From positions 537-64,536 of the forward strand of contig CASEOS010000005.1 in assembly GCA_949289635.1 (NCBI GenBank): DNA of 64,000 nucleotides, in the 5' to 3' direction. Each line of letters opens with the position of its first letter. The stretch's first letter is position 1. The DNA comes from an uncultured Eubacteriales bacterium (lineage in GTDB: Bacteria > Bacillota > Clostridia > TANB77 > CAG-508). Below are positions 4,136 to 23,409 of the stretch, one piece after another. A model generated the notes under the pieces. It searched no databases and had not been told where the DNA came from. It saw only the letters and a program-made list of their open reading frames with translations. Both the position numbers and the translations under genes were made by a program.

Positions 4136-4211
<76 letters not shown>

Positions 4212-4427
4212 AACTTATATCACTAGAACTGTAACGGTTTTAGTGATTTTTTATTGATTAAAAATTAGTTGCAATAATGGGTAAAAATCACCCATTTATG
4301 TCAAATTGGGGAGAAATTGGGGATGAACTCCTCAATTTGATACTTATAAATACCATAAATTTCAACAAAATTTATATTTGATAAATATGAGAGTTACAAA
4401 AGTAGTTTATAAGATAATATTGAACTT

Positions 4428-5627
4428 TTAATTTGCTTTGCTTGATATTAACAAATTTTCTAATACATTTCCAGCTTTTTTATCATGTGATTTTAGTGGA
4501 TGTACATAAAAATTATATGTAGTAGTAATTTGTGCATGACCAAGCCTTGCAGATACTGTTGCAACATCTATTTGTTGTCCTATCAAAAGAGTTGCATTAG
4601 TATGTCTTAAACCATGAAAATTAATTACAGGTAGTCCAATAGATTTTACAAAATCAACAAACCATTTACTAATTGTAGATGGATGAATAGGTTTACCATT
4701 ATCTTGAACAAATAACCTATCTGATTCGTACCAAAAATCGCCTACAATTGATTTTTGCTCTTCATACCATAACCTATATTCCTTAAGCAAAGAAACAATA
4801 AAATCAGGGATTGCAACGTCTCTAATAGAGCTTTCTGTTTTTGGTGACTTTGTAAATACCCCTTTAGGAGCTAGATATTGGCTTGATTTGTTAATATTGA
4901 TAATACCATTTTTGAAATCAATGTCACTCCATTCAAGTCCAACAAGTTCTCCAAGTCTTGCACCAGTAAATATATCAAGTAAAATTGCAACACGATATTT
5001 AATGTCTTTACCAGTGAGCTTTTCTAAGTTATCAACTAAAATTTTAGTTTGATCTTCATCATAATGAGGTCTTATTGGTTTTGCTGCTTTAGGTGGCTGA
5101 ACACGTTCTGCAGGATTACTTACAATAAGTTGCCAATATACTGCTTTATGAAGCATTGCTGAAAGTAAACGGTGATGTTCTAATATTGTTTTTGGTGATA
5201 AAGGTTTCCTTGTCTTTTTACCATTGTTGTTTTTCTTTCTAACTAATTGAGTATCAGCCTCAAGCAAATCATAAAATCTCATAATGTCAGTAGGCATTAT
5301 TTTGTTTAATTTATAATGTCCAAAATATGGAGTGATTCTCGTTTCTAACATACGTTTATATCTGTAATATGTAGATGGTGCAAGTTCTTTTAAACCATAA
5401 TCTCTAGTCCATATTTCGACAAATTGTGCAAATGTAGGAACAGTTCCACCGACTACTAGTCCACTTTCAACTTGTGTTAAAAATTTTGCAAGTTCTATTT
5501 GTGCTTCTGATTTGTTTTTACAATGTACTGTTTTTTGATGTCTAATGGGCTTTCCGTCTAGGTCATATCCTTTAAATACAACTAGCCTGTAACTATTTTT
5601 TCCACGCTTTTCAATACTACCAGTCAC
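4428..5627 (-). CDS. int: tyrosine-type site-specific integrase
   Basis: 399 aa; C-terminal catalytic motifs HGLRHT...LGHAQITTTYNFYVH (R-H-R-Y); adjacent to tRNA 3' end. Confidence 0.9.
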   Translation of the reverse strand: MTGSIEKRGKNSYRLVVFKGYDLDGKPIRHQKTVHCKNKSEAQIELAKFLTQVESGLVVGGTVPTFAQFVEIWTRDYGLKELAPSTYYRYKRMLETRITPYFGHYKLNKIMPTDIMRFYDLLEADTQLVRKKNNNGKKTRKPLSPKTILEHHRLLSAMLHKAVYWQLIVSNPAERVQPPKAAKPIRPHYDEDQTKILVDNLEKLTGKDIKYRVAILLDIFTGARLGELVGLEWSDIDFKNGIININKSSQYLAPKGVFTKSPKTESSIRDVAIPDFIVSLLKEYRLWYEEQKSIVGDFWYESDRLFVQDNGKPIHPSTISKWFVDFVKSIGLPVINFHGLRHTNATLLIGQQIDVATVSARLGHAQITTTYNFYVHPLKSHDKKAGNVLENLLISSKAN

Positions 5628-5882
5628 TATCTTTTGCCTCCTTTCTGTTTTGATTTAGTAATTTTTTGAATTACTATGTTTTTATTGTAGCATATTTTTT
5701 TGGGAAATCGAAACCCGACAGGTGGTTATTGAGATAAAAAATATATTACTCATATAGTTAAAAATATTAGCTAAAGATCAAAATATAAAAGGTAAAAAAG
5801 TATTGACTTTAATAAAAATAAGTTTTATAATATAACTTATAAGTTATACGAAGGGAGTAATCTATGTAAGGAGTGCGTTAAG

Positions 5883-6824: not shown

Positions 6825-6840
6825 TTAGGAGGACAAGTAA

Positions 6841-7287
6841 ATGGAAAATAATAAAATTATGTCTAGTTTTCAATTTATAGATAGTTATATTAAAAGTAGT
6901 AATATAAAAATACATAATAGAAATATCAAAAATAGTAAATTAGAACTTGGAATAGAAGTAAATATCTCTGAAATAAAAGAGAATGAAAATGAACTTTCAG
7001 CAGAACTAAGATTGAAAAATATAGTAAAAATAAATAACGGAAATGGAGACATATTAGTGGAAATCGATGTGGAAATGGCTGGAATTTTTAGAGCACATAA
7101 TATGGATAAAGAAAAATTTATTCAATTCATGAAATTTAGTGGTACGCCTATTATTTCTCAATCAATAAGGAGTTATGTAATGAGTATATCAGCTTTAAGT
7201 GGCATAGAAACAATTAGAATACCATTAATAAATTATGTTGAATTCTTTAAAAATAATGATGAAAATGAAAATAAGGAAGTAAAATAA
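6841..7287 (+). CDS. hypothetical protein
   Basis: 148 aa ORF, RBS GGAGG upstream, no recognisable motif. Confidence 0.3.
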   Translation: MENNKIMSSFQFIDSYIKSSNIKIHNRNIKNSKLELGIEVNISEIKENENELSAELRLKNIVKINNGNGDILVEIDVEMAGIFRAHNMDKEKFIQFMKFSGTPIISQSIRSYVMSISALSGIETIRIPLINYVEFFKNNDENENKEVK

Positions 7288-7323
7288 ATACTTCCTTATT
7301 TTTTGTAATATATATTTTAAATT

Positions 7324-9048: not shown

Positions 9049-9169
9049 TTTTATATCTCCTTAATTAATTTTTTAGATAATAGGATTTTATCATTATATG
9101 TTTATAATTACAATAGATATTTATATACAAATAAATAAAATCAATTAAATTGTTGATTTAGTTTTTATA

Positions 9170-10228
9170 TTATTTCCTTATTTTCATACTATCAATCCAC
9201 TTCTCAAATTCTTTACTACTAATTTTACCATGCTGATATTTATCGAGCATCACTGCACCAATTACCTTATATTTTTCATAAAGAGGTAATACATTCGGAT
9301 TACTACTTAAAGAAGCTTGTTTTTGTAAATTTTTATATCTGTTTCTATATCGTTTACAAAGAGGATCATTTGCAAAATTTCTACCAAAAGCAAGATTTTC
9401 TACGTATTCTTTACATGTTTTTCCATTTTCAAAAATCTCATCACAATATAAAGTTTTATGAGCAGTTTTAGGAATAAAATAGTAATCACAATTTTTACAT
9501 TTTATAATCCTAAAACTCTTTTTATTATTCATAAATTCTTTCATACTAACAAATAAAAGGCAAGCAAAGTCATCGGAAGAATAATAATATTTGATATTAT
9601 TTTTTGATTCATTAGGTATAGCGTTTAAAAAGAAATTATCTAAATCAAAATTCATTTTTATATCTTTAAAATTTTCAGCTATGTCATTTAGAATAGATTC
9701 ATATGTTTCATTATCTTTTAATCTTTTCAGTTTTTCATAATCAGAATCTTTTTCGGTAGATGCTTCAAATAATGTTTTAAAATAAACTTTATCTACTATG
9801 TTTTTAAATACATATTGAGCCGATTCTATAAAAGAAAAATATAAAATCTTAGCTTCTTCAGAATATTTTATAATTTCTTCTTCTGTTAAAATTATTTTTG
9901 GATTATCCATTATTTCATAAGTTAAATCAATATTTCTATAATATTCAAAATAAAGATAATTTTTATTTCTAGCTATGAAGTTAACTAAAAAGTAATTAAT
10001 TAAGAAATAATTTAAATGCCAAACATCAGTAAAGTCTAAATTAAGAAACTCAAGTAAAAATGTTCCGATTTTTTTTGCTTTAGGTTTAACTTTTTCAAAT
10101 ACATAGAATTTTTTATCTCGTAACTTTTCTGGAAATTTAACTAGTTCAGTAATTTCTATTGGTTCGTATCTTACAAAGTATTCTTTTGAATTTTTAAAAT
10201 CAAATGCAAGTTCTAAATCATAATTCAT
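9170..10228 (-). CDS. hypothetical protein with C-terminal zinc ribbon (possible Rep-like initiator)
   Basis: 352 aa; Cys cluster CKNCDYYFIPKTAHKTLYCDE...CKEY; tandem iteron-like repeats immediately upstream. Confidence 0.35.
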   Translation of the reverse strand: MNYDLELAFDFKNSKEYFVRYEPIEITELVKFPEKLRDKKFYVFEKVKPKAKKIGTFLLEFLNLDFTDVWHLNYFLINYFLVNFIARNKNYLYFEYYRNIDLTYEIMDNPKIILTEEEIIKYSEEAKILYFSFIESAQYVFKNIVDKVYFKTLFEASTEKDSDYEKLKRLKDNETYESILNDIAENFKDIKMNFDLDNFFLNAIPNESKNNIKYYYSSDDFACLLFVSMKEFMNNKKSFRIIKCKNCDYYFIPKTAHKTLYCDEIFENGKTCKEYVENLAFGRNFANDPLCKRYRNRYKNLQKQASLSSNPNVLPLYEKYKVIGAVMLDKYQHGKISSKEFEKWIDSMKIRK

Positions 10229-10295
10229 TCTATTTTCCCCCCTTAAGTTTACGGTAAATCACAGATATGCGTTTCTGGTTCTATATATATAAAAG

Positions 10296-10575
10296 ACAAC
10301 ATAAAATTTATATTTACACGAAATTTTTAAAATTTTTTTATCTTATAAATATATAGGCGAAATGAGAGTTGCAATTTTCCCAGAATTTCAAAAAATTTTT
10401 TTGTCATATATATAGGCGAAAATTTTATTAAAAATCTGAATAAATTTTAAGAAATTTTTAATTTTATATATAGACAAAATAAGATTTGTAATTTTCCACA
10501 ATTTTTTTAATTTTTGTTCACATATATAGGCGAAATTTTTATTAAAAAGGTTAAAAATTTTTTTTATTTTTTAAA
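10296..10575. repeat. tandem iteron-like repeats (two ~115-bp units, each with a TATATAGGCGAAA-headed half)
   Basis: Four occurrences of TATATAG(G/A)C(G/A)AAA followed by alternating related AT-rich tracts; imperfect, so not CRISPR. Confidence 0.6.
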
Positions 10576-10780
10576 ATTTTTTTGTAACATTGCCCTACAA
10601 AGAAAATAATTGAATAATTTATTGCCTGTCTGGTTTTTTTAAACTAATAAAACAACTAAAATAATAAACAATAATTAGTTAACTAAATTATACAAACGAT
10701 ATCGTAGAAAGGTATAAAATTTAATGGTCTTATACCTTTCTGTAGAAAAACTTAAATAAAAAGTAAAGAGAGGTGATTAT

Positions 10781-10984
10781 ATGAGTGAGTTAGCAAAGGT
10801 AGAACGTACTACATTAACCATGAAAGAAACAGCAGAATATTTAGGAATTTCATATTGGCTAGTAAATCAATTAGTACGTAGAAAACAAATACCATGTGCA
10901 AGAGTTGGTGGTAGAGTATTATTTAGAGTACAAGCCTTAGATGAATACTTAAAAGAAAAAGAAGAAAATTCATTGAAAAAGTAA
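10781..10984 (+). CDS. xis: excisionase / MerR-type HTH DNA-binding protein
   Basis: LTMKETAEYLGISYWLVNQLVRRKQIPCARVGGRVLFRVQALDEYL matches excisionase-family HTH. Confidence 0.65.
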   Translation: MSELAKVERTTLTMKETAEYLGISYWLVNQLVRRKQIPCARVGGRVLFRVQALDEYLKEKEENSLKK

Positions 10985-10998
10985 GGAGGGCAAGAGGT

Positions 10999-11490
10999 AT
11001 GCAATGGATTAAAGTGTTTACAGATATATTTGCAAATCCTAAAATTCAATTATTATTTAAAGAACGTGATGGGGACACGTTCTTTAGAGTATGGATTCAA
11101 TTATTAACAATAGCAGGACAATGTATGCAAGATGGCAAGTTAATGATGTCCGAGAATAATCCAATGACGATACAAGATTTTGCAACAATCATAAACAAAA
11201 CAAACAACAAAATGGAAAATATACTGGACAAGTTAATCCATTTAGAGATGATTATATTTGAAGAAAACACATATATAATTAAAAATTGGTATAAGTACCA
11301 AAGTATTGATAAATATGAAAAAATGTTAAAACAAAGTAGAGAAAGACAAAAGAGGTTTAGAGATAAGAAAAAAGAAGAAAATAACGTTACAATAACGTTA
11401 CGTAACGCTACAGAAGAGAATAGAAAAGAAGTAGAAGAGAGTATAGAAGAAGGTGAGAATGGTAGTGGATTTAAAACAATTGATTTCTGA
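10999..11490 (+). CDS. phage-type replisome organizer (N-terminal domain)
   Basis: MQWIKVFTDIFANPKIQLL...WIQLLTIAGQ pattern characteristic of the phage replisome organiser N-domain. Confidence 0.6.
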   Translation: MQWIKVFTDIFANPKIQLLFKERDGDTFFRVWIQLLTIAGQCMQDGKLMMSENNPMTIQDFATIINKTNNKMENILDKLIHLEMIIFEENTYIIKNWYKYQSIDKYEKMLKQSRERQKRFRDKKKEENNVTITLRNATEENRKEVEESIEEGENGSGFKTIDF

Positions 11491-12295
11491 TATAGTTATT
11501 GATACAGATAACAAAATGCACAAACAGTGTAAATTTTGTGGAAAACATCTTCCAATAATAGATTATTCAGTATTATATGCTAACATTGTTTATAAAAATA
11601 TTGCAACTGCATATAGTAGATGTACTTGTGAAAAAGCAAAAGAAATTTGGAAAGCTTATGATGAATTAAAAGAAAATCAAGAGATTAAAGATTTTTATAT
11701 AAAACAAATTAATAAATTGTTTAAAAATAATAATTTAGGTAAAAGACAATTAAATAGTACATTTGAAAATTATAAAATAACAGATAAAAATAAAACAGTT
11801 TATGAAAATATAAAAAAATACACAACAAAATTAATAGAAGGAAATATCGATAAAGGTTTATTTATAACAGGAACTTATGGAGTTGGAAAAACCTTTATTG
11901 CATCATGTATTGCAAATGAGCTTATAAAAAATGATATTCCAGTTATATTTGGCACTTTAATACAATTATTAGATTGTATTAAAAATACCTATAAAGATGA
12001 TGAAATATCTGATAAAGAATACATTTACTTATATTCGAATGTTGATTTACTAATAATTGATGATTTAGGTAAAGAAAAAACAACAGAATGGGTATTAGAA
12101 AAATTATTTTTAATAGTAAATAATAGATATAATAATTATTTACCTATTGTAATAACAACTAATTATAATAGAAATCAATTGAGAGAAAGACTTTGTGTAA
12201 ATAAAAATTATAGTATTGTTGATTCAATAATTTCAAGATTATATGGAATGTGTGCTGGAATTGAATTAATTGATAAAGATTATAGAATGAATTAA
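11453..12295 (+). CDS. DnaC/IstB-like AAA+ helicase loader
   Basis: Walker A GTYGVGKTF, Walker B LLIIDDLG; follows replisome organizer. Confidence 0.7.
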   Translation: MRMVVDLKQLISDIVIDTDNKMHKQCKFCGKHLPIIDYSVLYANIVYKNIATAYSRCTCEKAKEIWKAYDELKENQEIKDFYIKQINKLFKNNNLGKRQLNSTFENYKITDKNKTVYENIKKYTTKLIEGNIDKGLFITGTYGVGKTFIASCIANELIKNDIPVIFGTLIQLLDCIKNTYKDDEISDKEYIYLYSNVDLLIIDDLGKEKTTEWVLEKLFLIVNNRYNNYLPIVITTNYNRNQLRERLCVNKNYSIVDSIISRLYGMCAGIELIDKDYRMN

Positions 12296-12583
12296 TAATA
12301 TAAAACTGGCATTAAATAAAAAATGCTAGTTTTATTAATATTATAAAGTTAACTATTGTAGGTAAAATTCCCAACATTGGGAAATTCTCTAAAAGTACTG
12401 GTGTACAAACGTTACAGGGTAATTTGAATTGATAATGAATTTGAAGCAATTATAGACCATATTATATACAAAATACAATAAGAGCTTTAAGCAAGATTCC
12501 AATTTGTATATACAAATTGATTAGTGACAGTGTCACATAAGTTGGGAAGTTCCCAAACCCTTTTATAGAATGGAGATGATAAA

Positions 12584-12877
12584 TTGAGTAAAGATAAAGT
12601 AATAACAATTAGAGTTAGTGAACAACAGAAAAACAGATTGATAAAGAAAAGTAAAACAGCAGGCTTAAGTTTATCAGAATATTTAATTAATCAAGGATTA
12701 GATAAACAGATAATTAAGATCGAAGGATTAAATGAATTTATTACTGAACTTAGGAGAATAGGAAATAATATTAATCAATTAACGTATTTAGCAAATAGTG
12801 GAAGAATTTATACTGTTGATTTTTGTGAATTAAAACAAGAGTTAGGTAAGATATGGAGTGCAATTAATAATTTGTAG
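12584..12877 (+). CDS. mobC: MobC-family mobilization (relaxosome accessory) protein
   Basis: 97 aa; RHH-like N-term and ELRRIGNNINQLTYLANSG motif typical of MobC; no relaxase gene follows. Confidence 0.6.
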   Translation: MSKDKVITIRVSEQQKNRLIKKSKTAGLSLSEYLINQGLDKQIIKIEGLNEFITELRRIGNNINQLTYLANSGRIYTVDFCELKQELGKIWSAINNL

Positions 12878-12993
12878 TATAAATGGTGGTAAAAGTTCAA
12901 AATAAAAAAATACAAAATAAGCTAAAATTATGGAAAAATTTGAAACTTTATGATATAAAATATACTAGAAAAATAGATGAAGAGGTAATGAAA

Positions 12994-14448
12994 ATGGATG
13001 GTGCAATAAAAAGTATAATAGATAGAATGTGGAATAACTTTTGGGAAGGTGGAGTAACAAATCCACTAACAGTAATAGAACAAATAACATACCTTTTATT
13101 TATAAAAGGATTAGATGATATAGAAATAGCACATGAAAAAAATGATGTTATGTTAGGAATAACAAGTAAAAGAATATTTGATAAAGAACATCAAAATTGT
13201 AGATGGAGTAAATTTAAAGATTATCCTGCAGAAAAAATATTTAAGATAATGCAAGAAGAAGTATTTCCTTTTATTAAAAATTTGGGAAAAGACAAAGAAT
13301 CTGCTTATGCAAAATATATGGAAGATGCAATATTTATAATACCAACACCAATTATGTTACAAAAAGTTGTAACTGCAATGGACAAGCTAGAAATGAAAGA
13401 TAAAGACACTAAAGGTGATGTATATGAATATTTGTTATCTAAATTAAGCCAAGCTGGTGTAAATGGGCAATTTAGAACACCAAGACACATTATAAAAATG
13501 ATGGTGGAACTAATGAAACCAACACCAGAAGATATAATAGTAGACCCAGCATGTGGTACAGCAGGATTTTTAGTTGCAGCAGGAGAATATTTAAGAGAAA
13601 ATAAAGGAGATTTATTTTTATCAGAAAATCTAAATGAACATTTTAATAATACAATGTTTTATGGATTTGATATGGATAGAACAATGCTAAGAATTGGAGC
13701 AATGAATTTAATGCAACATGGTATAGAAAATCCTAATATTACATATAAAGATTCACTATCAGAAGATAATGAAGACAATGGGAAATATACATTAGTTTTA
13801 GCGAACCCACCATTTAAAGGTTCGATTGATGCAGAAAGAACATCAAAAGATTTATTAGCAATTACTAAAACTAAAAAAACAGAATTATTATTCTTAACAC
13901 TATTTTTAAGAATATTAAAAATTGGAGGAAGATGTGCTTCAATAGTACCAGATGGTGTATTATTTGGAAGTTCAAATGCTCATAAAGCAATTAGAAAAGA
14001 AATAATAGAAAATCATAAATTAGAAGCAATAATATCAATGCCAAGTGGGGTATTCAAACCTTATGCAGGAGTATCAACAGCAATTATGATATTTACAAAA
14101 ACAACACAAGGTGGAACAGATAAAGTTTGGTTTTATGATATGACAGCAGATGGATTTAGTTTAGATGATCAAAGACAACCTGTAAAAGAAAATGATATTC
14201 CAGATATTATAAAAAGATTTAACAATAGAGAATCAGAAGAAGAACAAAACAGAAAAAGAACAGAAAAATCATTCTTTGTAACAAAAAAGGAAATAGTAGA
14301 AAATGATTATGATTTATCGATTAATAAATATAAAGAAATAGTTATAGAAAAGAAAGAATATGAAAAGCCAGATGTTATTTTAAAAAGAGTAATTGATATG
14401 GAAGATGAAATCCAACAGAAATTGAAAGAGTTGGAGGAAATGATATGA
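12994..14448 (+). CDS. hsdM: type I restriction-modification methyltransferase subunit HsdM
   Basis: Motif I DPACGTAGFL, motif IV NPPF (LANPPFKGS); start chosen at ATG 12994 (RBS GAGG 8 nt upstream; longer ORF from 12883 possible). Confidence 0.85.
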   Translation: MDGAIKSIIDRMWNNFWEGGVTNPLTVIEQITYLLFIKGLDDIEIAHEKNDVMLGITSKRIFDKEHQNCRWSKFKDYPAEKIFKIMQEEVFPFIKNLGKDKESAYAKYMEDAIFIIPTPIMLQKVVTAMDKLEMKDKDTKGDVYEYLLSKLSQAGVNGQFRTPRHIIKMMVELMKPTPEDIIVDPACGTAGFLVAAGEYLRENKGDLFLSENLNEHFNNTMFYGFDMDRTMLRIGAMNLMQHGIENPNITYKDSLSEDNEDNGKYTLVLANPPFKGSIDAERTSKDLLAITKTKKTELLFLTLFLRILKIGGRCASIVPDGVLFGSSNAHKAIRKEIIENHKLEAIISMPSGVFKPYAGVSTAIMIFTKTTQGGTDKVWFYDMTADGFSLDDQRQPVKENDIPDIIKRFNNRESEEEQNRKRTEKSFFVTKKEIVENDYDLSINKYKEIVIEKKEYEKPDVILKRVIDMEDEIQQKLKELEEMI

Positions 14449-15500
14449 TGGAGAAAGTAAGATTAGGAGAATGTGCAACATTTATAAATGGCTATGCATT
14501 TAAACCAATAGATTGGTCAAGAAATGGAATACCTATAATTAGAATCCAAAATTTAACAGGTAGTATGAAGCAATTAAATTATTATAACGGAAAATTAGAT
14601 TCAAAATATATAATTAATAATGGTGATATATTAATTTCTTGGTCTGCTAGTTTGGGTATATTTGAATGGAAAAAAGAAAAGGCATATTTAAATCAACATA
14701 TATTTAAAGTTGAATTTAATAAAAAAAATATAAATAAAAAATATTTTGTATATTTAATAAAGTCAAAAATTAATGAGATGAAAAAGAACACACACGGATC
14801 TACTATGAAACATATAACTAAATCTGACTTTGATAAGATAGAGATATTTTTACCTAATATACAAGAACAGGAAAAAATTTCAAATATATTAGATAAAGTT
14901 CAACAAATAATAGATTTAAGAAAAAGACAAATAGAGGAATTAGATGAATTTATTAAATCTCTATTTATAGAGATGTTTGAAAATAATGATTGTGAAACTA
15001 AAAAATGGCAAGACGTATTTAATACAACAACTGGAAAATTAGACTCAAATGCAATGATAGAAGGTGGAATTTATCCATTTTTTACCTGCGCAAAAGAATC
15101 ATTTAGAATTAATGAGTATGCATTTGATTGTGAAGCGCTTTTATTAGCAGGAAATAATGCAGCAGGAGTTTATGATGTAAAACATTATAAAGGTAAATTT
15201 AATGCATATCAAAGAACCTATGTATTGACTTTAAAGAACGAAAAATGGAAATATGAATTATTTAAATTAGAATTGGAAGAAAAGTTGGATTTTTTAAAAA
15301 GTCAATCGAAAGGTTCAAATACTAGATATTTAACAATGAAGATATTAAATGATTTAACTTTTAAAGTTCCGGATTTAAATTTACAGAATAAATTTGCAGA
15401 ACTTGTAAAGCAAATTAATAAACAGAAATTTATACTAGAAAAAACTTTAAAAGAAACAGAAGAACTACAAGAAAGTTTAATGAATAAATATTTTAATTAG
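14445..15500 (+). CDS. hsdS: type I RM specificity subunit HsdS
   Basis: Overlaps hsdM stop (ATGA coupling); 351 aa with TRD plus conserved coiled-coil-like segments. Confidence 0.75.
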   Translation: MMEKVRLGECATFINGYAFKPIDWSRNGIPIIRIQNLTGSMKQLNYYNGKLDSKYIINNGDILISWSASLGIFEWKKEKAYLNQHIFKVEFNKKNINKKYFVYLIKSKINEMKKNTHGSTMKHITKSDFDKIEIFLPNIQEQEKISNILDKVQQIIDLRKRQIEELDEFIKSLFIEMFENNDCETKKWQDVFNTTTGKLDSNAMIEGGIYPFFTCAKESFRINEYAFDCEALLLAGNNAAGVYDVKHYKGKFNAYQRTYVLTLKNEKWKYELFKLELEEKLDFLKSQSKGSNTRYLTMKILNDLTFKVPDLNLQNKFAELVKQINKQKFILEKTLKETEELQESLMNKYFN

Positions 15501-15508
15501 GAGTAAAA

Positions 15509-16765
15509 ATGATTCAGATTATAACAGAAAACAATTATTTAAGAGAACAAACTAAAAATAATAGTGAATTTAAAGTAAATGGTTTCAAGAATATTGAAGC
15601 TATGGACGAATATGATATTAATATTATTGACTTAAATTCTCAAAATTTATGGTACAATAAGGGAGTAAATCAAGATAGTATTAATGAAATAAATGATTTA
15701 AAACATTTAAAAAATACTATAGAAAATTCTCTAAATTCAAAAATAGTAATAATATTGCCACAAAATTTAAATTATTATTGGAACAAATTTAATAATAAAT
15801 ATATTAATGAAGAACAATTAAAAAATGAAACGAAACTTATAGAAAAGATAATAAATGAAAATATATATTGCTTTCCATTTGACTTATATTATGAAAAAAC
15901 TATAACTAAAATAGGAGACAAAAAAATAAGCTCAGATTTTTGCTTTAGCAAAAAACAAATAGATACTAAATGGACTATATGCAATGTCACAAAAATTTTA
16001 AGTTCAACAAAATCTGATAAGATAAATACTATAAAAGTTAATGATAAAGTTTACATGACTTCATTAAATATAAATGAAAATATTGACTTAATAATTGAAT
16101 TCATGAAACATATAAAAATATATAATGAAAATGAGGAAATTGTGCCTATATGGATTAAGGATATTAATATACTAAATGATATTGAAATTAAGAAACAATT
16201 GAACCAAATAGACGAAGAGATATTGCAATTAGAACAAAATAAAATGCACATAAAAGAGGCAATAAATGAAAATAACAAAATTAAAAGTATATTATATGAG
16301 ACAGATAAAAAGTTACAAAATAAAGTTATAGAAATATTAAATGAAATATTAGATTATTCTGATGAAAATTTTGTGGATGAAATGGAAGAAGATTTTAGAA
16401 TAAAAAAAGAAAATATAACGTTTTTAATTGAAACAAAAGGTTTAAAAAGAAATATTGCTGGAACAGATATTAGTAAGACTTTGAATCATGTATTTGCTTA
16501 TGAAGAAACTATTCAAGATGAAAATAAACAAGAAAATGTAAAAGGTGTTTTTATAGTAGCAACACAAAGAGATAAAAATATATCAGAAAGAGAAGAAACT
16601 CCAGACAGGCAAATTAAAATTGCAGAAAGAAATAATATACTAATTATTAGAACAGAACAGTTATTAGAAATATTTGAAGATTTTCGAAATAAAAAAATAA
16701 ATACAGAAGATATAATTAAGTTACTGACTGAACAAAATGGTGAGTTAAAATATAATAAGGAGTAA
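15509..16765 (+). CDS. uncharacterised 418-aa protein embedded between hsdS and hsdR (possible PD-(D/E)xK-like C-terminal nuclease)
   Basis: Same strand, 8-nt and 3-nt gaps to hsdS and hsdR; central coiled coil; C-terminal D...FLIETKG (D-E-x-K-like); no Walker A. Confidence 0.5.
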   Translation: MIQIITENNYLREQTKNNSEFKVNGFKNIEAMDEYDINIIDLNSQNLWYNKGVNQDSINEINDLKHLKNTIENSLNSKIVIILPQNLNYYWNKFNNKYINEEQLKNETKLIEKIINENIYCFPFDLYYEKTITKIGDKKISSDFCFSKKQIDTKWTICNVTKILSSTKSDKINTIKVNDKVYMTSLNINENIDLIIEFMKHIKIYNENEEIVPIWIKDINILNDIEIKKQLNQIDEEILQLEQNKMHIKEAINENNKIKSILYETDKKLQNKVIEILNEILDYSDENFVDEMEEDFRIKKENITFLIETKGLKRNIAGTDISKTLNHVFAYEETIQDENKQENVKGVFIVATQRDKNISEREETPDRQIKIAERNNILIIRTEQLLEIFEDFRNKKINTEDIIKLLTEQNGELKYNKE

Positions 16766-16768
16766 AAT

Positions 16769-19700
16769 ATGTCAAATTTTGATTTTTTAAAACAAAGTAA
16801 AATATTTAATAATTTTTCAGAAGCATGTTGTGAAGCAGAAAATGGAATAGGATTAAACACAGTAACATGTAGCATATTAAGTAGAAGAGCACTAGAATTA
16901 GCAGTAAAATGGCTATATGCCAATGATAATGATTTAAGAATTCCATACAATGATAATTTATCAGCATTAGTTCATGATATAACATTTAAGAATATAATAG
17001 ATGAAAAATTGTTAAAGCAAATTGAATATGTTATAAAATTAGGAAATTTTGCAGTACATAATAATAATAAAATATCAAGAGAAGAGGCAATTCTTTCTTT
17101 AAGATATTTATATAATTTTACTTGTTGGATAGCATATTGTTATTCTGACAGTTTTGAAGAAAAAGAATTTGATGAAAATATTTTACCTAAACAAACTGTA
17201 AATGTATTAGCAGTAAAAGAAAGAGAAACTTTATATCAAGAATTAGAAGCAAAAGACAAAAAGATAGAAGAAACAAAAAAAGAAAATGAAGAATTAAGAA
17301 AAAAACTAACTCAAACAAGAGAAAATAAAAAGAAAAATTATGCATTTAATGTTAAAGATATATCTGAATACGAAACAAGAAAGAAATATATTGATTTGGA
17401 ATTAAAGTTAGCAGGATGGGATTTTGAAACTAATATACAAGAAGAATTAAAATTACAAGGTATGCCTAATAATCAAAATGTAGGATATGCAGATTATGTA
17501 TTATTTGGCAAAAATGGTTTGCCTCTTGCAGTTGTTGAAGCAAAGAGAACAAGTGTAGATCCAAAAGTTGGACAAAATCAAGCCAAATTATATGCAGATT
17601 GTATTGAGCAAGAATATCATCAAAGACCAGTTATATATTACACAAATGGATTTGAAATATATATGTGGGATGATGAAAATTATCCACCAAGAAAAGTAGC
17701 AGGATTTTACACACAAGATGAATTACAGTTATTAATAAATAGAAGAAGTAGTAAACAAAGTTTAGAGCATATATTTGTAGATGACAAAATAACAAATAGA
17801 GAATATCAGTTAGAAGCAATAAAAAGTGTTTGTGAAACTTTTGAAGAAGGACATAGAAAAGCATTATTAGTAATGGCAACAGGTACAGGAAAAACAAGAA
17901 CAGCTATATCAATAGTTGATGTACTATCTGATAAAGAATGGGTTAAAAATGTATTATTTTTAGCTGATAGAACAGTTTTAGTAAAACAAGCAAAAAATAA
18001 TTTTGTAAAGTTATTGCCTAATATGTCTTGCTGTAATTTATTGAGTACAGTAGATAATCCAGAAGATTCAAGAATTGTATTTTCAACATACCAAACTATG
18101 ATTAATGCAATAGATAGTACAAAAAGTAAAACAGGAAACAAATTATTTACACCAGGACATTTTGATTTAATTATTGTAGATGAAGCTCACAGAAGTATAT
18201 ATAAAAAATATCAAGCTATATTTGAATATTTTGATGGCTTAGTAGTAGGATTAACAGCTACTCCAAGAAATGATGTAGACAGAAATACATATAGATTTTT
18301 TGAAATAGAAAATGATGTACCTACATTTGCATATGAATATGAAAGAGCAGTAAAAGAAGGATATTTAGTAGATTATCATACTATAAAAACAAGTACAGAT
18401 TTTATGGATAGAGGAATTAAATATAATGAATTAAGTGCAGAAGAAAAAGAAGAATATGAAAATACCTTTGCAGATGATGAAGATAATATTCCAGAAGAAA
18501 TAGATGCTGCAGCTATTAATAGTTGGTTATTTAATAGGGATACCATAAAAAAATTGTTGGAACTTTTAATGGAAAAAGGATTAAAAGTAGAAGGAGGAGA
18601 TAAATTAGGAAAAACTATTATATTTGCAAGAAATCACAAACATGCAGAAAGAATAGTAGAAATATTTAATGAATTATATCCAGAGTATAGAGGTGAATTT
18701 GCAAAATTAATAGATAATCAAGTTAAGTATAACGAAAACTTAATAGAACATTTTAGTATAAAAGATGACTTTCCTCAAATTGCAGTATCTGTTGATATGT
18801 TAGATACAGGCGTTGATGTGCCAGAAATATTAAATTTAGTATTTTTTAAACCAGTAAAATCAAAAATAAAATTCTGGCAAATGATAGGTAGAGGAACAAG
18901 ACTTTGTAAAGATTTATTTGGAGTAGGGCAAGATAAAAAAGAATTTTACATATTTGACTATTGTAAGAATTTCGAATTCTTCTCTGAGAATCCAAAAGGT
19001 ATAGAAGCAAACACACAAATAAGTTTGACAGAAAGAATATATGGATATAAGTTAGATTTAATTGTAGAATTACAAAATATAAAATACCAAAGTGATGAGA
19101 AATTTAAAAATTATAGAGAAGAATTGATAGATGAATTTATTGAAGAAATAAATAAACTAAATAAAGAAAGTTTTTTAGTAAAAGCAAAAGTACATTATAT
19201 AGAACAATTTTCTAAGAAAGATAATTGGGTATATATCTCTACAATAGATTTAGCTGATATAAAAGAAAATCTAATTCCATTGTTTATAGCATCAGATGAG
19301 AATGAATCAGCTAAAAGATTTGACAATTTATTGTATCAATTACAAGTAAAAAGAATTAGAACAGAAAAAACTGGTAGATGTGAGAATGCAATAATAGATA
19401 CAGTATCTGAATTAGAAAAACTAGGAACAGTACCACAAGTAAAAGAAAAACAAGAATTGATTTTAAAAGTAGCAGAAACAGATTACTTGAAAGAAGCAGA
19501 TTTTTGGAAAGTAGAAGAAATTAGAAAAGAATTAAGAGATTTAATACAATTTATAGATCCATATAATAGACCGCCTGTATATATTGATATGGAAGATACT
19601 TTAAATGATATTGATGAAGAATATGTATATGTAAGTACAGGAAATAACTTCACAAATTATAGAAAAAAACTAGAAAAATTCTTAACAGGTAATTTAGAAA

Positions 19701-20116
19701 ACAGTATTATATGGAAAATAAGGCATAATATAAGATTAACAGAATTAGAAAAAGAAAATTTAGAAAAAATATTATTTGAAGAATTAGGAAGTAACAAAGA
19801 ATATGCAGAAACATTTGGAGATACAAATGTAATAAAAGCAGTAAGAAATATAGTTGGACTTGATAAAAGCGTTGCAAGTGATATTTTTTACAAATACATA
19901 AATGAAAATAGATTGAACATGAAACAAATACAATTTGTAAAATTACTAGTTGATTATGTTGTGAAAAATGGAACTATAGAAATGGAAAAATTAACAGAAC
20001 AACCTTTTAACACTGTTGGACAAGTATATGAGCTTTTTGGAAATAATGTGGATTTATTTAAAGAGATTCGAGAGGATATTGAAGAAATAAATGAGAATGC
20101 TGAGAAATTGGCATAA
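16769..20116 (+). CDS. hsdR: type I restriction endonuclease subunit HsdR
   Basis: 1115 aa; helicase motif I MATGTGKT, motif II IIVDEAHRS (DEAH). Confidence 0.9.
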   Translation: MSNFDFLKQSKIFNNFSEACCEAENGIGLNTVTCSILSRRALELAVKWLYANDNDLRIPYNDNLSALVHDITFKNIIDEKLLKQIEYVIKLGNFAVHNNNKISREEAILSLRYLYNFTCWIAYCYSDSFEEKEFDENILPKQTVNVLAVKERETLYQELEAKDKKIEETKKENEELRKKLTQTRENKKKNYAFNVKDISEYETRKKYIDLELKLAGWDFETNIQEELKLQGMPNNQNVGYADYVLFGKNGLPLAVVEAKRTSVDPKVGQNQAKLYADCIEQEYHQRPVIYYTNGFEIYMWDDENYPPRKVAGFYTQDELQLLINRRSSKQSLEHIFVDDKITNREYQLEAIKSVCETFEEGHRKALLVMATGTGKTRTAISIVDVLSDKEWVKNVLFLADRTVLVKQAKNNFVKLLPNMSCCNLLSTVDNPEDSRIVFSTYQTMINAIDSTKSKTGNKLFTPGHFDLIIVDEAHRSIYKKYQAIFEYFDGLVVGLTATPRNDVDRNTYRFFEIENDVPTFAYEYERAVKEGYLVDYHTIKTSTDFMDRGIKYNELSAEEKEEYENTFADDEDNIPEEIDAAAINSWLFNRDTIKKLLELLMEKGLKVEGGDKLGKTIIFARNHKHAERIVEIFNELYPEYRGEFAKLIDNQVKYNENLIEHFSIKDDFPQIAVSVDMLDTGVDVPEILNLVFFKPVKSKIKFWQMIGRGTRLCKDLFGVGQDKKEFYIFDYCKNFEFFSENPKGIEANTQISLTERIYGYKLDLIVELQNIKYQSDEKFKNYREELIDEFIEEINKLNKESFLVKAKVHYIEQFSKKDNWVYISTIDLADIKENLIPLFIASDENESAKRFDNLLYQLQVKRIRTEKTGRCENAIIDTVSELEKLGTVPQVKEKQELILKVAETDYLKEADFWKVEEIRKELRDLIQFIDPYNRPPVYIDMEDTLNDIDEEYVYVSTGNNFTNYRKKLEKFLTGNLENSIIWKIRHNIRLTELEKENLEKILFEELGSNKEYAETFGDTNVIKAVRNIVGLDKSVASDIFYKYINENRLNMKQIQFVKLLVDYVVKNGTIEMEKLTEQPFNTVGQVYELFGNNVDLFKEIREDIEEINENAEKLA

Positions 20117-20134
20117 ATAAGAGGAGGAATATAA

Positions 20135-20833
20135 ATGGCAAGAGGAGTAATTTATTGTATGACGACTATAGTGGATGGACTTGTAAAAATAGGAAAGACA
20201 AGGAAAGAAAATTTCGAACAACGTATGTATAATTTGGAGCATAATGGTTATGTTCAAATTGTAGGATTAAAAAGAAGATTTGCTATAGAAGTAGAAGATT
20301 ATGATGAAAAAGAAACGCTTATACAAGAGATTTTTAGAAAAAGCAATATAGAAAATACAGAATTATTTGCTGTAAATGTAGATTTAGTTGTTCAATTACT
20401 TTCATCACTAGAGGGAACACAAATTTTTCCAAAGTCAATAAGCAAAGAAGAATCTTTTAATACAGCGACAGATGAGATTCAAGAAAACATACATAATCCT
20501 AATAAATTTTTAGTTCCTGATGGAGAATATTATATTTCTCAAAAAAGTAATGGGAATCAAACTGCAAAAGCAACTATGAAAGTTGATAATGGTAAATTCA
20601 TTGTATTAAAAGGTAGTAGATGTCTTCCTTGTGATAAAGATTGGATGCCAGAAACAAGAAGAACGGCAATAATAGAAAATGGAATATTGATGAAAGATGT
20701 TGAATGTAATTCTCCTAGTACAGCAGGTTGGGTTGTTCTTGGAAGTGCTAATAATGGATGGTTAACCTGGAAAACTAAAGATGGTAAATCAATCAATGTA
20801 TTCAGAAATAACAAGATAACAAGTAATGAATAA
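20135..20833 (+). CDS. T5orf172 (GIY-YIG-like) / DUF4357 domain protein
   Basis: N-terminal GVIYCMTT...GLVKIGKT...R..NL pattern of T5orf172/MUG113 domain; frequently found next to type I RM loci. Confidence 0.55.
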   Translation: MARGVIYCMTTIVDGLVKIGKTRKENFEQRMYNLEHNGYVQIVGLKRRFAIEVEDYDEKETLIQEIFRKSNIENTELFAVNVDLVVQLLSSLEGTQIFPKSISKEESFNTATDEIQENIHNPNKFLVPDGEYYISQKSNGNQTAKATMKVDNGKFIVLKGSRCLPCDKDWMPETRRTAIIENGILMKDVECNSPSTAGWVVLGSANNGWLTWKTKDGKSINVFRNNKITSNE

Positions 20834-21026
20834 ATTTAGCGTGAAGAAGGATAAAATTATGAAAATTAAATGTTTAGTTTGTGGAGATATTATAGAATCA
20901 AAAAGTGTACACGATCTAGTATGTTGTAAATGTGAATCATGCTATATTGATGGTGGAAATTACTATGCACATATAGGTGCAAAAGATTTTGATAAAGTTG
21001 TTGAAGTTAAATTAGATTTAAAATAA
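20826..21026 (+). CDS. small zinc-ribbon protein
   Basis: 66 aa, CxxC...CCKCESC Cys pairs; start overlaps upstream stop. Confidence 0.4.
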   Translation: MNKFSVKKDKIMKIKCLVCGDIIESKSVHDLVCCKCESCYIDGGNYYAHIGAKDFDKVVEVKLDLK

Positions 21027-21106
21027 ACTAAAGAAAGCAAAATAATTAATATACAAATAGTTGTTTAATTATTTTGCTTTTTTATGTCTAAGTGAGGAGT
21101 AATTAA

Positions 21107-23053
21107 ATGAAAAGTATAGGTAAAAAAATAATAAAGATAATAAATGGACTTAATATTATTAATATTAGCATTTTATTAATATATAATTTTGAAAGTACAA
21201 AACATTTTATTAAAACTATAATTGTAGCGTTATTAGATGAAAATATTGCAATAAAAGTAAATGGCATTTATATTATGATACTGCCAACTTTAAAAAATAT
21301 AATATATTTATATATTATTATATTTTTTATTATAGCTACATTTAAAATAATATATTATTATTCGAAAAGGTATTTACAAAGAAAAAAAGTAGAAAAAGCA
21401 GATGAAATTAATAGAAATTTATTTGAGTATTTAAATAATGATGATAAAAAGTGTTTTGTAATTACAGGTGATTGGGGAGTGGGAAAAACATATACAGTAG
21501 ATGAATTTTTTAAAAATTATTTTAAATATGAAAGAAGAGAAGTATATAGAATTTCTTGTTTTGGAATGAAGGATAGGAAAGATGTATTACAGGAATTAAA
21601 AAATATTTTTGAAAAGCAAGATAAGTCTTTTAGAAAATATATGATTAATATTTTGAATAAAATACCTATTATTGGAGGATTACTTGAAGATGCTCTTAAA
21701 AGTGATTATGAATTTAAAGATTTAAAAGAAAAATCAATTTTTGTTTTTGATGATCTAGAAAGAATAAATATCCCCAATTATTCAAGTAGATATAATAGAG
21801 ATTGGTATAGAGTAAAAAACATACGACAAAATCCTTTTGAAAAGATACCATTAAACGAGTTATATAAAGAATTTAAAGAAATTGAAAGTTCTTTTAAAAA
21901 TTTTGATAATTCATTAGAAAAAATAAAAGAAGATATTGATATAGAAAAATTTAATGTTATTACAGGTATTATAAATGAATTAATAGAACGATATAATATG
22001 AAAGTAATTGTTATATGTAATAATGAAGAAATTGATAAAAATTTTTTTAATGATATATTTGAGTGTAAAATTGAAAGTGTTTTTTATAAAATTAATACTA
22101 AATATAAAATTACATTAGATTTGGCAACAAGAAATTTAAATAATAAATTATCCATAGAGGACGGTATTAAAGAAAAAGTAAAAGTTTTTTTTGAAACTAA
22201 TGCAAGTTGTATTGATAAAATATGGTATAAAAATAATGTAAAAAATGTAAGAGTATTATCTAAAACTATAAGTGCTTTTGTAGAAATTGTTGAGAATTAT
22301 AAAATTGAAGAGAAATATTACAAAGATTTATTTTTTACTATATTCATTACTAATATAGCTAATTATACAGGAGAAATATCATATTTAGAAGATATTCAAA
22401 TAGGAGAATTGATAAAAGCTTTTTATGAAAAACATATGTTAATGCTAGGAAATTATAGTAATATGTTGAAAAAAGGAATATTGTATAGTATTTCTTCTGA
22501 AGTAGATACATATGATATAAGATGGATGGGCTTAAATTTAGGTATTGCTTGGAACATGGGGATTCATAGATACGAAGGAATACAACAAGAGATTGAAAAA
22601 TATGATAGTTACAATTATGATGAAGAAAGAAAAATATTTTGTAAAAATGAAGATATAGATTTAGAAAATAATAATATATATAAATTTGACGATTTAGTTT
22701 ATTTGTTAAAAATAAATGTGGATAATGAAGAAAAAGTAAATAGTATATTTAAGATTATAAAAGAAGGAAAAATTGACTATATAAGTCATACATCTTTTAC
22801 ATATGGTGGTAGAGCATTTGGAAATATAAATAATGAGAAAGATGCAAGCAAAAAAGAAATTATATTTGCAACATTGCAATCCTATAAAATTGATGATACC
22901 ATATTGACAAAAATTTTTGAAATATTAGAAAATATTATAGATGCAAACGAAATAGATAATTTTTCAGAAAGAAAGTCAAGTAATTTATTGAAAACGGTAG
23001 AAGACAAGTATATAAACTTTTTAAATAATAAAAGAAAAATTGAAAAGAAATAA
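21107..23053 (+). CDS. KAP-family P-loop NTPase with N-terminal transmembrane segments
   Basis: 648 aa; TM helices at N-terminus; Walker A GDWGVGKTY, Walker B IFVFDDLER. Confidence 0.6.
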   Translation: MKSIGKKIIKIINGLNIINISILLIYNFESTKHFIKTIIVALLDENIAIKVNGIYIMILPTLKNIIYLYIIIFFIIATFKIIYYYSKRYLQRKKVEKADEINRNLFEYLNNDDKKCFVITGDWGVGKTYTVDEFFKNYFKYERREVYRISCFGMKDRKDVLQELKNIFEKQDKSFRKYMINILNKIPIIGGLLEDALKSDYEFKDLKEKSIFVFDDLERINIPNYSSRYNRDWYRVKNIRQNPFEKIPLNELYKEFKEIESSFKNFDNSLEKIKEDIDIEKFNVITGIINELIERYNMKVIVICNNEEIDKNFFNDIFECKIESVFYKINTKYKITLDLATRNLNNKLSIEDGIKEKVKVFFETNASCIDKIWYKNNVKNVRVLSKTISAFVEIVENYKIEEKYYKDLFFTIFITNIANYTGEISYLEDIQIGELIKAFYEKHMLMLGNYSNMLKKGILYSISSEVDTYDIRWMGLNLGIAWNMGIHRYEGIQQEIEKYDSYNYDEERKIFCKNEDIDLENNNIYKFDDLVYLLKINVDNEEKVNSIFKIIKEGKIDYISHTSFTYGGRAFGNINNEKDASKKEIIFATLQSYKIDDTILTKIFEILENIIDANEIDNFSERKSSNLLKTVEDKYINFLNNKRKIEKK

Positions 23054-23409
23054 AGATGCAGATTAACACATAGTAAATGTGTTGATACAAACAACTTATT
23101 ATTTTAAGATAAAATAAAGTAAATTCAATAAAAGAGGAGAAAAATTATACTACTCTTTTATTCTTTTAAACATTTGAAGATTAAACTCAAAACCATCACA
23201 AAAGTCATTCCTATAATAATTTTTATTCCAATAAACAATATAATCTAAAATAAATGTAAACTATGGAATAATTAACGAATTTATGATATATTAATTGCAA
23301 CAAAAAATTGCTTGGGAGGAAAACAGTAAAGGAACAATTAAAAGGAGTTATATTTTATGAATGTAGAATTTATTAACGATGTTATACCAATGATGGATTA
23401 AGATTACCT

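Follow-up and report, generated by a model that had tools for sequence, protein, structure and literature searches.

Several defence systems have been found lodged within type I restriction-modification (R-M) loci. Defence systems are known to embed between hsdS and hsdR, a slot proposed to be a recombination hot spot for defence genes (PMC12255303), and a further report also describes independent defence modules lodged between hsd genes (PMC11411939). 'Guilt by embedding' has been experimentally validated, and of the genes found inside type I R-M loci, more than half still lack an explanation (10.1101/2024.01.29.577857). PrrC and RloC, which are tRNA anticodon nucleases with an ABC-type NTPase, belong to this slot, and DarTG2 (EPEC RRDM island), TgvAB (V. 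cholerae VPI-2) and the PDC candidates of PADLOC are likewise lodged between hsd genes. END nucleases are found beside type I R-M; each is a single gene with a type IIS-like two-module plan, in which an inactivated enzyme fold serves as a swappable sensor (10.1101/2025.03.31.646159). Among type IIS enzymes, the FokI cleavage domain, the R.BspD6I small subunit and the Nt.BspD6I catalytic domain represent the fold type nearest to the effector domain considered here. Non-catalytic class-I glutamine amidotransferase (GATase)-like domains occur in ThuA-like proteins, as the GIFT domain of IFT52 and as the GH42 trimerisation domain; we know of no such domain with a nuclease as fusion partner or with a link to defence.

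The window analysed here, a 64,000-nucleotide stretch of DNA from an uncultured Eubacteriales bacterium, carries in the hsdS-hsdR slot a gene for a 418-aa protein, which we call X. Like PrrC and RloC, X is co-directional and co-expressed with the Hsd genes and would add a second effector layer. Unlike them, it has no ABC-type NTPase: the Walker A motif ([AG]xxxxGK[ST] and looser patterns) is absent from X and from all 270 family members scanned, and no anticodon-nuclease domain HMM of Pfam, NCBIfam or PADLOC matches X or any of 48 diverse members. X is thus not a PrrC or RloC, as the original prediction had maintained. Its effector is predicted to have a FokI-type PD-(D/E)xK DNase fold rather than that of an anticodon nuclease, the evidence here does not support control by Hsd, and X is embedded in only ~43% of its lineages, while PrrC is hardly ever found outside such loci (10.1101/2024.01.29.577857). 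DarTG2, TgvAB and the PDC proteins are unrelated to X, which is a single gene of another architecture. In place of the wHTH DNA-recognition domains of FokI and BspD6I, X is modelled with a GATase1-like domain and a probable coiled coil; it also lacks a cognate methyltransferase of matching specificity and significant sequence similarity to these enzymes. END nucleases use PLD where X has PD-(D/E)xK and an HhH glycosylase where X has a GATase1-like domain, with the domain order reversed, and DNA-modification sensing has been shown for END but is hypothetical for X.

X is embedded in a type I R-M operon on an integrative island

Four co-directional genes of the + strand, hsdM, hsdS, X and hsdR, make up the operon, with the gaps of 8 and 3 nt on either side of X that had been noted. 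The longest ORF of the type I methyltransferase gene hsdM (N6_Mtase, 3.2e-68, and HsdM_N; PADLOC MTase_I, 1.6e-190, in a match that begins at aa 36) does run from 12883 to 14448, where the gene had been placed. Its true start, however, is probably the ATG at 12994, because a ribosome-binding site (AAGAGG, 12981-12986) lies ahead of this codon and hsdM orthologues have the resulting length of 484 aa. The specificity subunit gene hsdS (14445..15500; Methylase_S, 1.2e-40, in two stretches), a variable cassette gene with two TRDs, overlaps hsdM by 4 nt. X (15509..16765) follows hsdS after the 8-nt gap, with AGGAG spanning the hsdS stop, and hsdR (16769..20116) follows X after the 3-nt gap, with AAGGAG within the final X codons. 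HsdR is type IB/EcoAI-like, combining an N-terminal DUF4145 with HSDR_N, ResIII (1.1e-42) and EcoEI_R_C and matching the NCBIfam EcoAI family (1.5e-77). With HsdM, HsdS and HsdR domains all detected (Pfam, PADLOC, NCBIfam), the host operon carries the type I R-M signature. HsdR's own nuclease motif (D242...E-A-K) is intact here and in the five orthologues checked, so X is not a substitute for a dead HsdR nuclease.

No terminator-like site was found between 12600 and 23400, and X is co-transcribed with hsdM-hsdS-hsdR and probably translationally coupled to them as well; a promoter scan was uninformative at ~24% G+C (105 matches versus 93 expected). The gene order bears out that X occupies the PrrC slot, a position from which it had been predicted to act as an R-M-coupled latent effector. 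In a PrrC-like guard arrangement of this kind, the Hsd complex would hold X inactive until a phage anti-restriction factor, such as an Ocr/ArdA-like mimic or a Stp-like peptide that disables or remodels the type I enzyme, released it as a suicide DNase. The shared slot, the short gaps with Shine-Dalgarno sequences inside the neighbouring genes, and the precedent of PrrC itself (PMC12707154) all speak for this arrangement.

The operon is carried by an island whose left end (4136..5627) is likely marked by a tRNA-Met gene (4136-4211, + strand; ARAGORN) and a tyrosine integrase gene (4428-5627, - strand; Phage_integrase, 2.5e-27). The boundary search found no tRNA-derived direct repeat that would mark an att site, and the right boundary (~23.1-23.4 kb) is therefore inferred from gene content only. 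Two further + strand genes lie downstream as context rather than as parts of X: a PDC-S57 candidate (20135..20833; GIY-YIG-like MUG113 plus DUF4357; PADLOC PDC-S57, 5.7e-97; DUF4357, 2.4e-13), which begins 18 nt after hsdR, and a PDC-S49 candidate (21107..23053; AAA/KAP-like NTPase with N-terminal hydrophobic segments; PADLOC PDC-S49, 1.2e-15; AAA_22; phrog_4740).

X belongs to a large family that current domain models do not cover

X and 48 diverse family members had no match in Pfam or NCBIfam, and X had none among PDB sequences (phmmer and profile search), none in the BFVD viral fold search and no credible one in PHROGs. Among the 5,027 models of PADLOC-DB v2.0.0, only DpdH matched X (E=0.0021), and across the 48 members three different families each matched a single protein, both at chance level. 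DpdH, an HP1 chromodomain (E=0.15) and phrog_21369 were discarded as chance-level hits that relatives of X do not share. The family is new to Pfam, NCBIfam and PADLOC, no model of which covers it; no homologue with a known function was found, and every source that names its members calls them 'hypothetical'. X can nonetheless be accepted as a real gene, since 1,296 cluster representatives (50% identity) match it at E<=1e-3, 409 of them at E<=1e-30, and nearly all of the 150 listed representatives are 400-430 aa long.

X is modelled as a non-catalytic GATase1-like domain joined to a FokI-type nuclease domain

In an AlphaFold2 single-chain model (pLDDT 85.9, pTM 0.52; secondary structure by DSSP), X consists of three parts, whose relative placement is uncertain because the pTM is only 0.52. 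The N-terminal domain (aa 1-205; 15509..16123, + strand) is modelled with a GATase1 alpha/beta fold, not a P-loop, and lacks the catalytic triad. A Cys-His-Glu triad was not found; the family has no conserved Cys at any position, and Cys121, Cys145 and Cys158 of X fall outside the conserved columns of the family alignment. We therefore reject X as an active glutaminase. Compared with the other non-catalytic class-I GATase-like domains, this one has a conserved set of its own: Q3, D33, N38, W48, D63, P84, N86, K105, T133, F144 and T184.

The long coiled coil of the original prediction corresponds to a 40-residue helix (aa 224-263; 16178..16297, + strand) in which 8 of 12 a/d positions are hydrophobic, and which by the model probably does form a coiled coil. 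The predicted PD-(D/E)xK nuclease likewise found support, as the C-terminal ~135 aa (aa 286-418; 16364..16762, + strand) are modelled as a restriction-endonuclease-like alpha/beta core of the FokI/BspD6I type. The D...hhhE-T-K segment noted earlier is present as D295...E308-T-K310; in the model, D295 opens strand 295-300 and E308-T-K310 closes strand 303-310, adjacent strands that are the expected places for a PD-(D/E)xK motif. Together with D290, these are the proposed catalytic residues (+ strand: D290, 16376-16378; D295, 16391-16393; E308, 16430-16432; K310, 16436-16438), and all four are 100% conserved in the 150 listed representatives, which are 26-44% identical to X, and likewise in the most diverse family alignment. 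The net charges of the three parts are 0, -8 and -7, making X acidic overall, an uncommon property among enzymes that bind DNA.

The link to FokI is one of modelled structure only. An hhalign comparison of the family profile with the FokI cleavage domain (its sequence verified against 1fok/2fok) was not significant (E=0.39), and the Pfam FokI and REase models matched none of the 48 family members. We infer from the fold and the invariant motif that the C-terminal domain would cleave DNA. As the active site can be predicted (D295, E308, K310), this proposal is directly testable.

X is a mosaic whose variable half does not follow HsdS

Relative to a closely related locus (L122), HsdM and HsdR of the window are 98% and 97% identical and HsdS is 39% identical, and within X the N-terminal domain is 42% and the C-terminal domain 80% identical. 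At the DNA level (blastn against L122 and L123), the match picks up again at 16265 and extends to 20120 with 93.2% identity. This places a sharp breakpoint at ~nt 16265 (aa ~253), within the long helix, which splits X into a variable and a constant half, the latter inherited as one block with hsdR. Across the family, 62 pairs combine C-terminal domains of at least 92% identity with N-terminal domains of at most 50%, and the reverse was found in 0 pairs. By these comparisons the N-terminal domain is a variable, swappable module, and we propose that it serves as a sensor.

Parts of this pattern would suit a guard released by attack on Hsd: the constant half that travels with hsdR could provide the wiring, and the variable domain could be where fast-changing phage inhibitors make contact, its turnover fitting an arms race. 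The N-terminal domain is, however, unlikely to be an Hsd-docking surface, because it diverges where HsdM and HsdR are nearly unchanged and is indifferent to HsdS. In eight locus pairs, the N-terminal domains of X are 97-100% identical and the HsdS TRDs 12-36% identical, with the exception of one TRD2 shared by L046 and L050; one of the eight pairs includes a shufflon locus. Judged from these alignments, the N-terminal domain does not co-vary with HsdS. Since identical X proteins occur with unrelated TRDs, we reject the idea that this domain matches or docks onto the TRDs so that X could use the type I specificity.

Most X lineages lie outside type I operons

Related loci were sought with the main-clade sub-alignment of the X family, the most diverse alignment having no conserved stretch. 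The hosts are gut and rumen Clostridia, Bacilli, Erysipelotrichaceae, Turicibacter and Fusobacterium. Of the 54 lineages that could be classified, 23 sit within type I operons, 15 belong to prophages or viruses, and 16 lie elsewhere. The survey of hsdS-X-hsdR synteny that had been suggested showed that the layout recurs in many genomes: hsdM-hsdS-X-hsdR was found in the window and in loci L001-L003, L005, L114-L119, L122 and L123, and five of the seven lineages sampled from X's own clade are embedded with this identical layout. Context is phylogenetically clustered (13 switches versus ~25 expected at random), so that the embedded state appears stable, as a guard held by Hsd would predict.

Against such a guard stand the 31 lineages (of 54) that have no type I genes nearby, in which the architecture is complete and none of the invariant residues is lost. 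These include prophage copies between a late regulator and terS, a copy fused to a DpnII cassette (a type II system), copies among housekeeping genes, and copies that stand alone. In L002 and L003, moreover, X is intact while the adjacent hsdR is frameshifted. Neighbour clustering and Pfam/PHROGs censuses revealed no obligate partner gene; X is accompanied by Hsd genes, by phage packaging genes or by mixed defence, mobile and housekeeping genes, and the hsdS-hsdR slot also houses Fic, DUF559 and AbiH genes. The R-M-coupled latent effector of the original prediction is therefore unsupported as stated, given that the same architecture occurs in prophages, beside DpnII and alone, and it is weakened further by identical X proteins with unrelated HsdS and by the frameshifted hsdR. 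We regard it as rather unlikely that X is an R-M-coupled FokI-type DNase, wired through its constant half and firing on attack on Hsd, with the GATase-like domain as anti-restriction decoy or sensor. If true, X would be a counterpart of PrrC that targets DNA and has an unrelated structure, and the coupling would explain why ~40% of a family of more than 1,000 clusters stays between hsdS and hsdR.

The copies outside type I operons bear on two other readings. Many have no methyltransferase of any kind nearby, let alone a cognate one of matching specificity, so self-DNA must be spared in some other way. X might be a restriction endonuclease of a modification-dependent (type IV-like) or otherwise DNA-feature-specific kind, in which the inactivated N-terminal enzyme fold recognises DNA that is modified or unusual and the FokI-like domain cuts nearby, a modular plan as in MspJI-type enzymes or END nucleases that requires no cognate methylase. 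END nucleases, which sense through an inactivated EndoIII fold and were found beside a type I system (10.1101/2025.03.31.646159), offer a parallel, and a GmrSD-like gene on the same tRNA-Met integrative island indicates that type IV-like functions travel with cargo of this kind. We nevertheless consider this specific form of recognition improbable.

The prophage copies often lie in the order late regulator-X-terS-terL, and 22 IMG/VR contigs carry the family. Neither X nor a prophage-clade member matched any INPHARED isolate phage genome, and the evidence for a phage context accordingly comes from prophage-like loci in metagenomes and from IMG/VR predictions. Free-standing homing endonuclease genes occupy intergenic slots between conserved genes, and the pre-terminase position is where packaging-assisting phage HNH nucleases are found. 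X sits in intergenic slots of both operon types, its prophage copies take the pre-terminase position, and the family shows at least 13 context switches and wholesale recombination; it could accordingly be a selfish, homing-type endonuclease or a phage DNA-processing nuclease that hitch-hikes without benefit to the host. Several features make this very unlikely. Embedded copies have kept their place across deep divergence, to identities as low as ~30%, with an intact ORF and intact catalytic residues. X differs from known homing endonucleases in its size and in its three-part build, isolate phages in INPHARED do not carry the family, and many copies lie outside both phages and conserved operons. 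Furthermore, the prophage copies are flanked on both sides by spacers of ~90-200 nt (measured at L087), as morons are.

Discussion

With moderate confidence, we interpret X as autonomous sensor-nuclease defence cargo that is co-expressed with an R-M system. The non-Hsd contexts, the unrelated HsdS partners and the frameshifted hsdR favour a module that acts on its own and has found a stable home in the hsdS-hsdR slot. Some coupling to Hsd retains a measure of plausibility, given the 23 embedded lineages out of 54 and the phylogenetic signal in context, and the clustering of contexts and the five embedded lineages out of seven would allow a specialised Hsd link within X's own clade. X is accordingly a good new candidate for an anti-phage nuclease, for which a PrrC-style partnership with the restriction enzyme is not demonstrable.

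As autonomous cargo, the X family would comprise ~410-aa single-chain nucleases, each built from a dead GATase1-like domain, a ~40-residue helix and a FokI/BspD6I-type cleavage domain. They would be self-contained mobile genes that settle in defence hot spots, with two main homes, the hsdS-hsdR slot and the slot between late regulator and small terminase of temperate phages. FokI itself needs the pairing of two cleavage domains to cut. By analogy, X may oligomerise through its long helix, and recognition by the variable N-terminal domain of an infection cue, for instance a phage protein or another invader-specific feature, could let two FokI-like domains pair and cleave DNA. X would thereby complement the type I enzyme with another nuclease as a second line of defence, one that does not read the DNA specificity of the type I system.

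The study of genes that sit inside defence operons has already brought new immune systems to light, and X provides one anatomy for such a gene: a design that pairs a variable sensor with a constant effector and in which recombination at one defined position reshuffles the two. If active, X would represent a new nuclease defence encoded by a single gene, and its FokI-like cleavage module would be compact and come with a targeting domain that is exchangeable by nature. It would also be a test case for whether embedding in a type I operon reflects functional coupling or a safe harbour.

The type I operon and its genomic island

All four open reading frames of the original prediction were recovered on the plus strand: hsdM (12883-14448), hsdS (14445-15500), the unannotated gene for the 418-aa protein X (15509-16765) and hsdR (16769-20116). 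The hsdM and hsdS frames share 4 nt, and the 8-nt and 3-nt gaps flanking X were as predicted, with AGGAG spanning the hsdS stop and AAGGAG within the final X codons; we found no terminator-like sites inside the operon. HsdM matched N6_Mtase (3.2e-68) and PADLOC MTase_I (1.6e-190), HsdS has two Methylase_S stretches, and HsdR, with DUF4145, HSDR_N, ResIII and EcoEI_R_C domains (NCBIfam EcoAI family, 1.5e-77), is a type IB/EcoAI-like subunit. The hsdM coordinates are those of the longest ORF. Since the PADLOC profile matched HsdM from residue 36 onward only, the 484-aa orthologues lack its 37-codon N-terminal extension, and an AAGAGG box (12981-12986) stands at the proper distance from the ATG at 12994, the true start is probably 12994 and not 12883.

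The operon sits on an apparent integrative, mobilisable defence island of ~19 kb (4136-23400) at a tRNA-Met gene (4136-4211). A tyrosine integrase (4428-5627, minus strand) is followed by a three-gene set (5883-7287; a 154-aa ORF, an HTH_3 protein at 6348-6824 and a SecB-like protein at 6841-7287) that resembles toxin-antitoxin-chaperone (TAC) modules. Then come GmrSD-like HEC-05 (7324-9048, minus strand), a DUF6076 gene, an HTH_17 excisionase-like gene (10781-10984) and, before hsdM, a phage replisome organiser, a DnaC/IstB-like ATPase and a NikA/MobC-like gene. PDC-S57 (20135-20833; GIY-YIG-like plus DUF4357) and PDC-S49 (21107-23053) lie beyond hsdR. The same backbone, from DUF6076 through NikA to hsdM, was present in L117, a fetched locus carrying an X relative; no att repeat of the island was found. 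Three imperfect ~76-nt direct repeats (10276-10586), each with ATATATAGGCGAAA[TA], lie in the intergenic stretch that precedes the HTH and replisome-organiser genes; these iteron- or operator-like repeats may serve as the island's origin of replication or bind a regulator. The slot right after hsdR (10-18-nt gap) also holds variable cargo: in the window this is PDC-S57, and related operons (L114, L117 and L118) have a 297-aa DUF5655 protein there.

X carries a predicted PD-(D/E)xK nuclease domain

X matched nothing in Pfam or NCBIfam, nor any PDB chain by sequence. Its hits in PADLOC (DpdH, E=0.0021, reproduced by 0 of 47 relatives) and PHROGs (E=0.053) were at chance level. X and all 270 homologues examined lack a Walker A motif and, with family matches also missing, X is neither PrrC nor RloC, in agreement with the original prediction.

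An AlphaFold2 model of X built from a 32-sequence alignment (mean pLDDT 85.9) fell into three parts: an N-domain (residues 1-205), a single long helix (224-263) with hydrophobic residues at 8 of 12 a/d positions, and a C-domain (286-418). The pTM was 0.52, and the modelled inter-domain geometry is therefore uncertain. In the C-domain, D295 starts one strand (295-300) and E308-T-K310 ends the next (303-310), a placement that in the model corresponds to PD-(D/E)xK geometry. D290, D295, E308, K310, G311 and R361 were invariant (100%) in 150 cluster representatives 26-44% identical to X, in line with the nuclease fold originally suggested. Because the family profile did not significantly match FokI by hhalign (E=0.39; FokI sequence checked against 1fok/2fok), we assign the modelled C-domain by fold and motif and not to the FokI sequence family. 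About a dozen N-domain residues are invariant or nearly so, several at or just past the ends of predicted beta-strands, which hints at a conserved candidate pocket under an otherwise variable domain.

Genomic contexts of the X family

An HMM scan of 1.84 billion representatives placed 1,296 clusters in the X family at E<=1e-3, of which 409 pass E<=1e-30; the best 150 of the 1,296 representatives are nearly all 400-430 aa and align end to end. None of the 240 proteins listed by two word-indexed searches has a Pfam domain, and wherever a source names one the name is "hypothetical protein". Named sources among them are Clostridia, Ruminococcaceae and Turicibacter, and genome matches added Bacilli, Erysipelotrichaceae and Fusobacterium vincentii. 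Most of the family carries the motif TF[IV]GEIKG, and X's own clade TFLIETKG.

For 125 fetched loci we predicted genes and ran searches on those next to X; a census was based on the 54 lineages (clusters at 90% identity) with sufficient flank. The hsdS-X-hsdR order recurs, with X embedded in a type I operon in 23 of the 54, mostly in this layout; variants included hsdM-X-hsdS, X-DUF559-hsdR and one X behind an HsdR of a different family. Fifteen lineages were prophage or viral and 16 lay elsewhere. In the prophage pattern X sits between the late regulator (phrog_36) and the small terminase, with the large terminase, SPP1-type portal and minor capsid protein 2 next in line; X genes occurred on 22 IMG/VR contigs, and none was found in INPHARED isolate phages. 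At one locus (L007, 62-4210) a 37%-identical homologue adjoins, with an overlap, a complete DpnII cassette (Dam-type D12 methylase, N6_N4 methylase, DpnII endonuclease), which links the family to type II R-M systems as well. Other copies lie amid housekeeping genes (L006, L008) or adjoin SLFN-like or UvrD helicases and Fic (L004, L120). No partner gene recurred among the neighbours searched outside the Hsd and phage sets, and X is thus a single-gene module.

Context is phylogenetically clustered yet labile, with 13 Fitch changes on a neighbour-joining tree (shuffled labels: mean 25, minimum 19). Of the 7 lineages sampled from the clade of X itself, 5 have the hsdM-hsdS-X-hsdR order, and their DUF4145-HsdR is 1113-1115 aa where intact and frameshifted in L002 and L003.

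A ~120-aa DUF559 (Vsr-like endonuclease) gene lies between X and hsdR in at least 7 loci, and a 335-aa gene of no identified family does so in L005; loci with extra X-hsdR inserts are L005, L020, L023, L024, L027, L046, L050, L056 and L091. Fic/DOC and AbiH genes recur immediately ahead of hsdM or X. These inserts are consistent with a hot spot between hsdS and hsdR that stacks several cargo genes.

A constant C-domain behind an exchangeable N-domain

Compared with locus L122, HsdM (98%) and HsdR (97%) are nearly identical, HsdS is only 39% identical, and X is split: 42% in the N-domain, 52% in the helix region and 80% in the C-domain. DNA identity is 94.5% until 14470, is lost over hsdS and roughly the opening 250 codons of X, and returns to 93.2% from 16265, at residue ~253 within the long helix, to the hsdR end. 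In a comparison of the 118 nearest listed full-length relatives of X, 62 protein pairs had C-domains >=92% and N-domains <=50% identical, and none showed the reverse. X is thus made up of a constant effector and an exchangeable front end, much as immune receptors and type IIS enzymes are.

Coupling to the Hsd complex

We considered whether embedded X acts as a PrrC-like guard, PrrC being, like X, a module embedded in a type I operon. Tight coupling with hsdS and hsdR, a long-term stable embedded state and inheritance of the constant half together with hsdR speak for such a role, but N-domains differ greatly in near-identical HsdM/HsdR backgrounds, which is unexpected for a docking surface. Moreover, in 8 locus pairs N-domains 97-100% identical sit beside HsdS TRDs only 12-36% identical (except one TRD2 common to L046 and L050); one of these pairs involves L003, whose hsdS genes are shuffled by an integrase. 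X is also kept intact in L002 and L003 beside an hsdR (9266-12606) that two frameshifts, next to A5 and A6 tracts, break into three overlapping ORFs, identically in two independent metagenome assemblies; this hsdR could be a pseudogene or reflect slipped-strand phase variation of the restriction subunit. Several tests therefore argue against X depending on Hsd specificity or the HsdR nuclease, and a guard role in the embedded clades seems unlikely. The structural part of the original prediction was right, but its functional parallel with PrrC is unproven and, for the family as a whole, on balance disfavoured.

Substitution for the HsdR nuclease was rejected because the HsdR D242...E-A-K motif is intact in all orthologues examined. 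The L003 recombinase lies between two hsdS genes (4613-7999), a phase-variable shufflon, and tyrosine recombinases occur upstream in three further X-carrying type I loci (L026, L028, L033); in recombinase-bearing loci X is unchanged and the neighbouring HsdS altered.

Discussion

FokI-type domains, as established for FokI, cleave only once two of them pair. X, in which a predicted coiled-coil stalk joins a variable, non-catalytic N-domain to one predicted nuclease domain of this type, would be well suited to act as a trigger-gated DNase: the N-domain would recognise some sign of infection, the oligomeric state would change so that two nuclease domains pair, and the pair would cut DNA. We lean towards a protein or small-molecule cue more than DNA, because the N-domain is neutral to acidic and its fold matches include no DNA-binding relatives. 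A modification-dependent, END-nuclease-like mode is a serious rival.

Type I operons are already known to harbour independent defence modules, among them PrrC and, between hsdS and hsdR, DarTG2 (PMC12255303), and a guilt-by-embedding survey reports that over half of embedded genes are still unexplained (10.1101/2024.01.29.577857). X belongs to this fraction, since no PADLOC model matches it, and we found no earlier description of its three-part architecture in the literature searched. X would represent a novel, predicted nuclease family housed in a gene arrangement of a kind already known.
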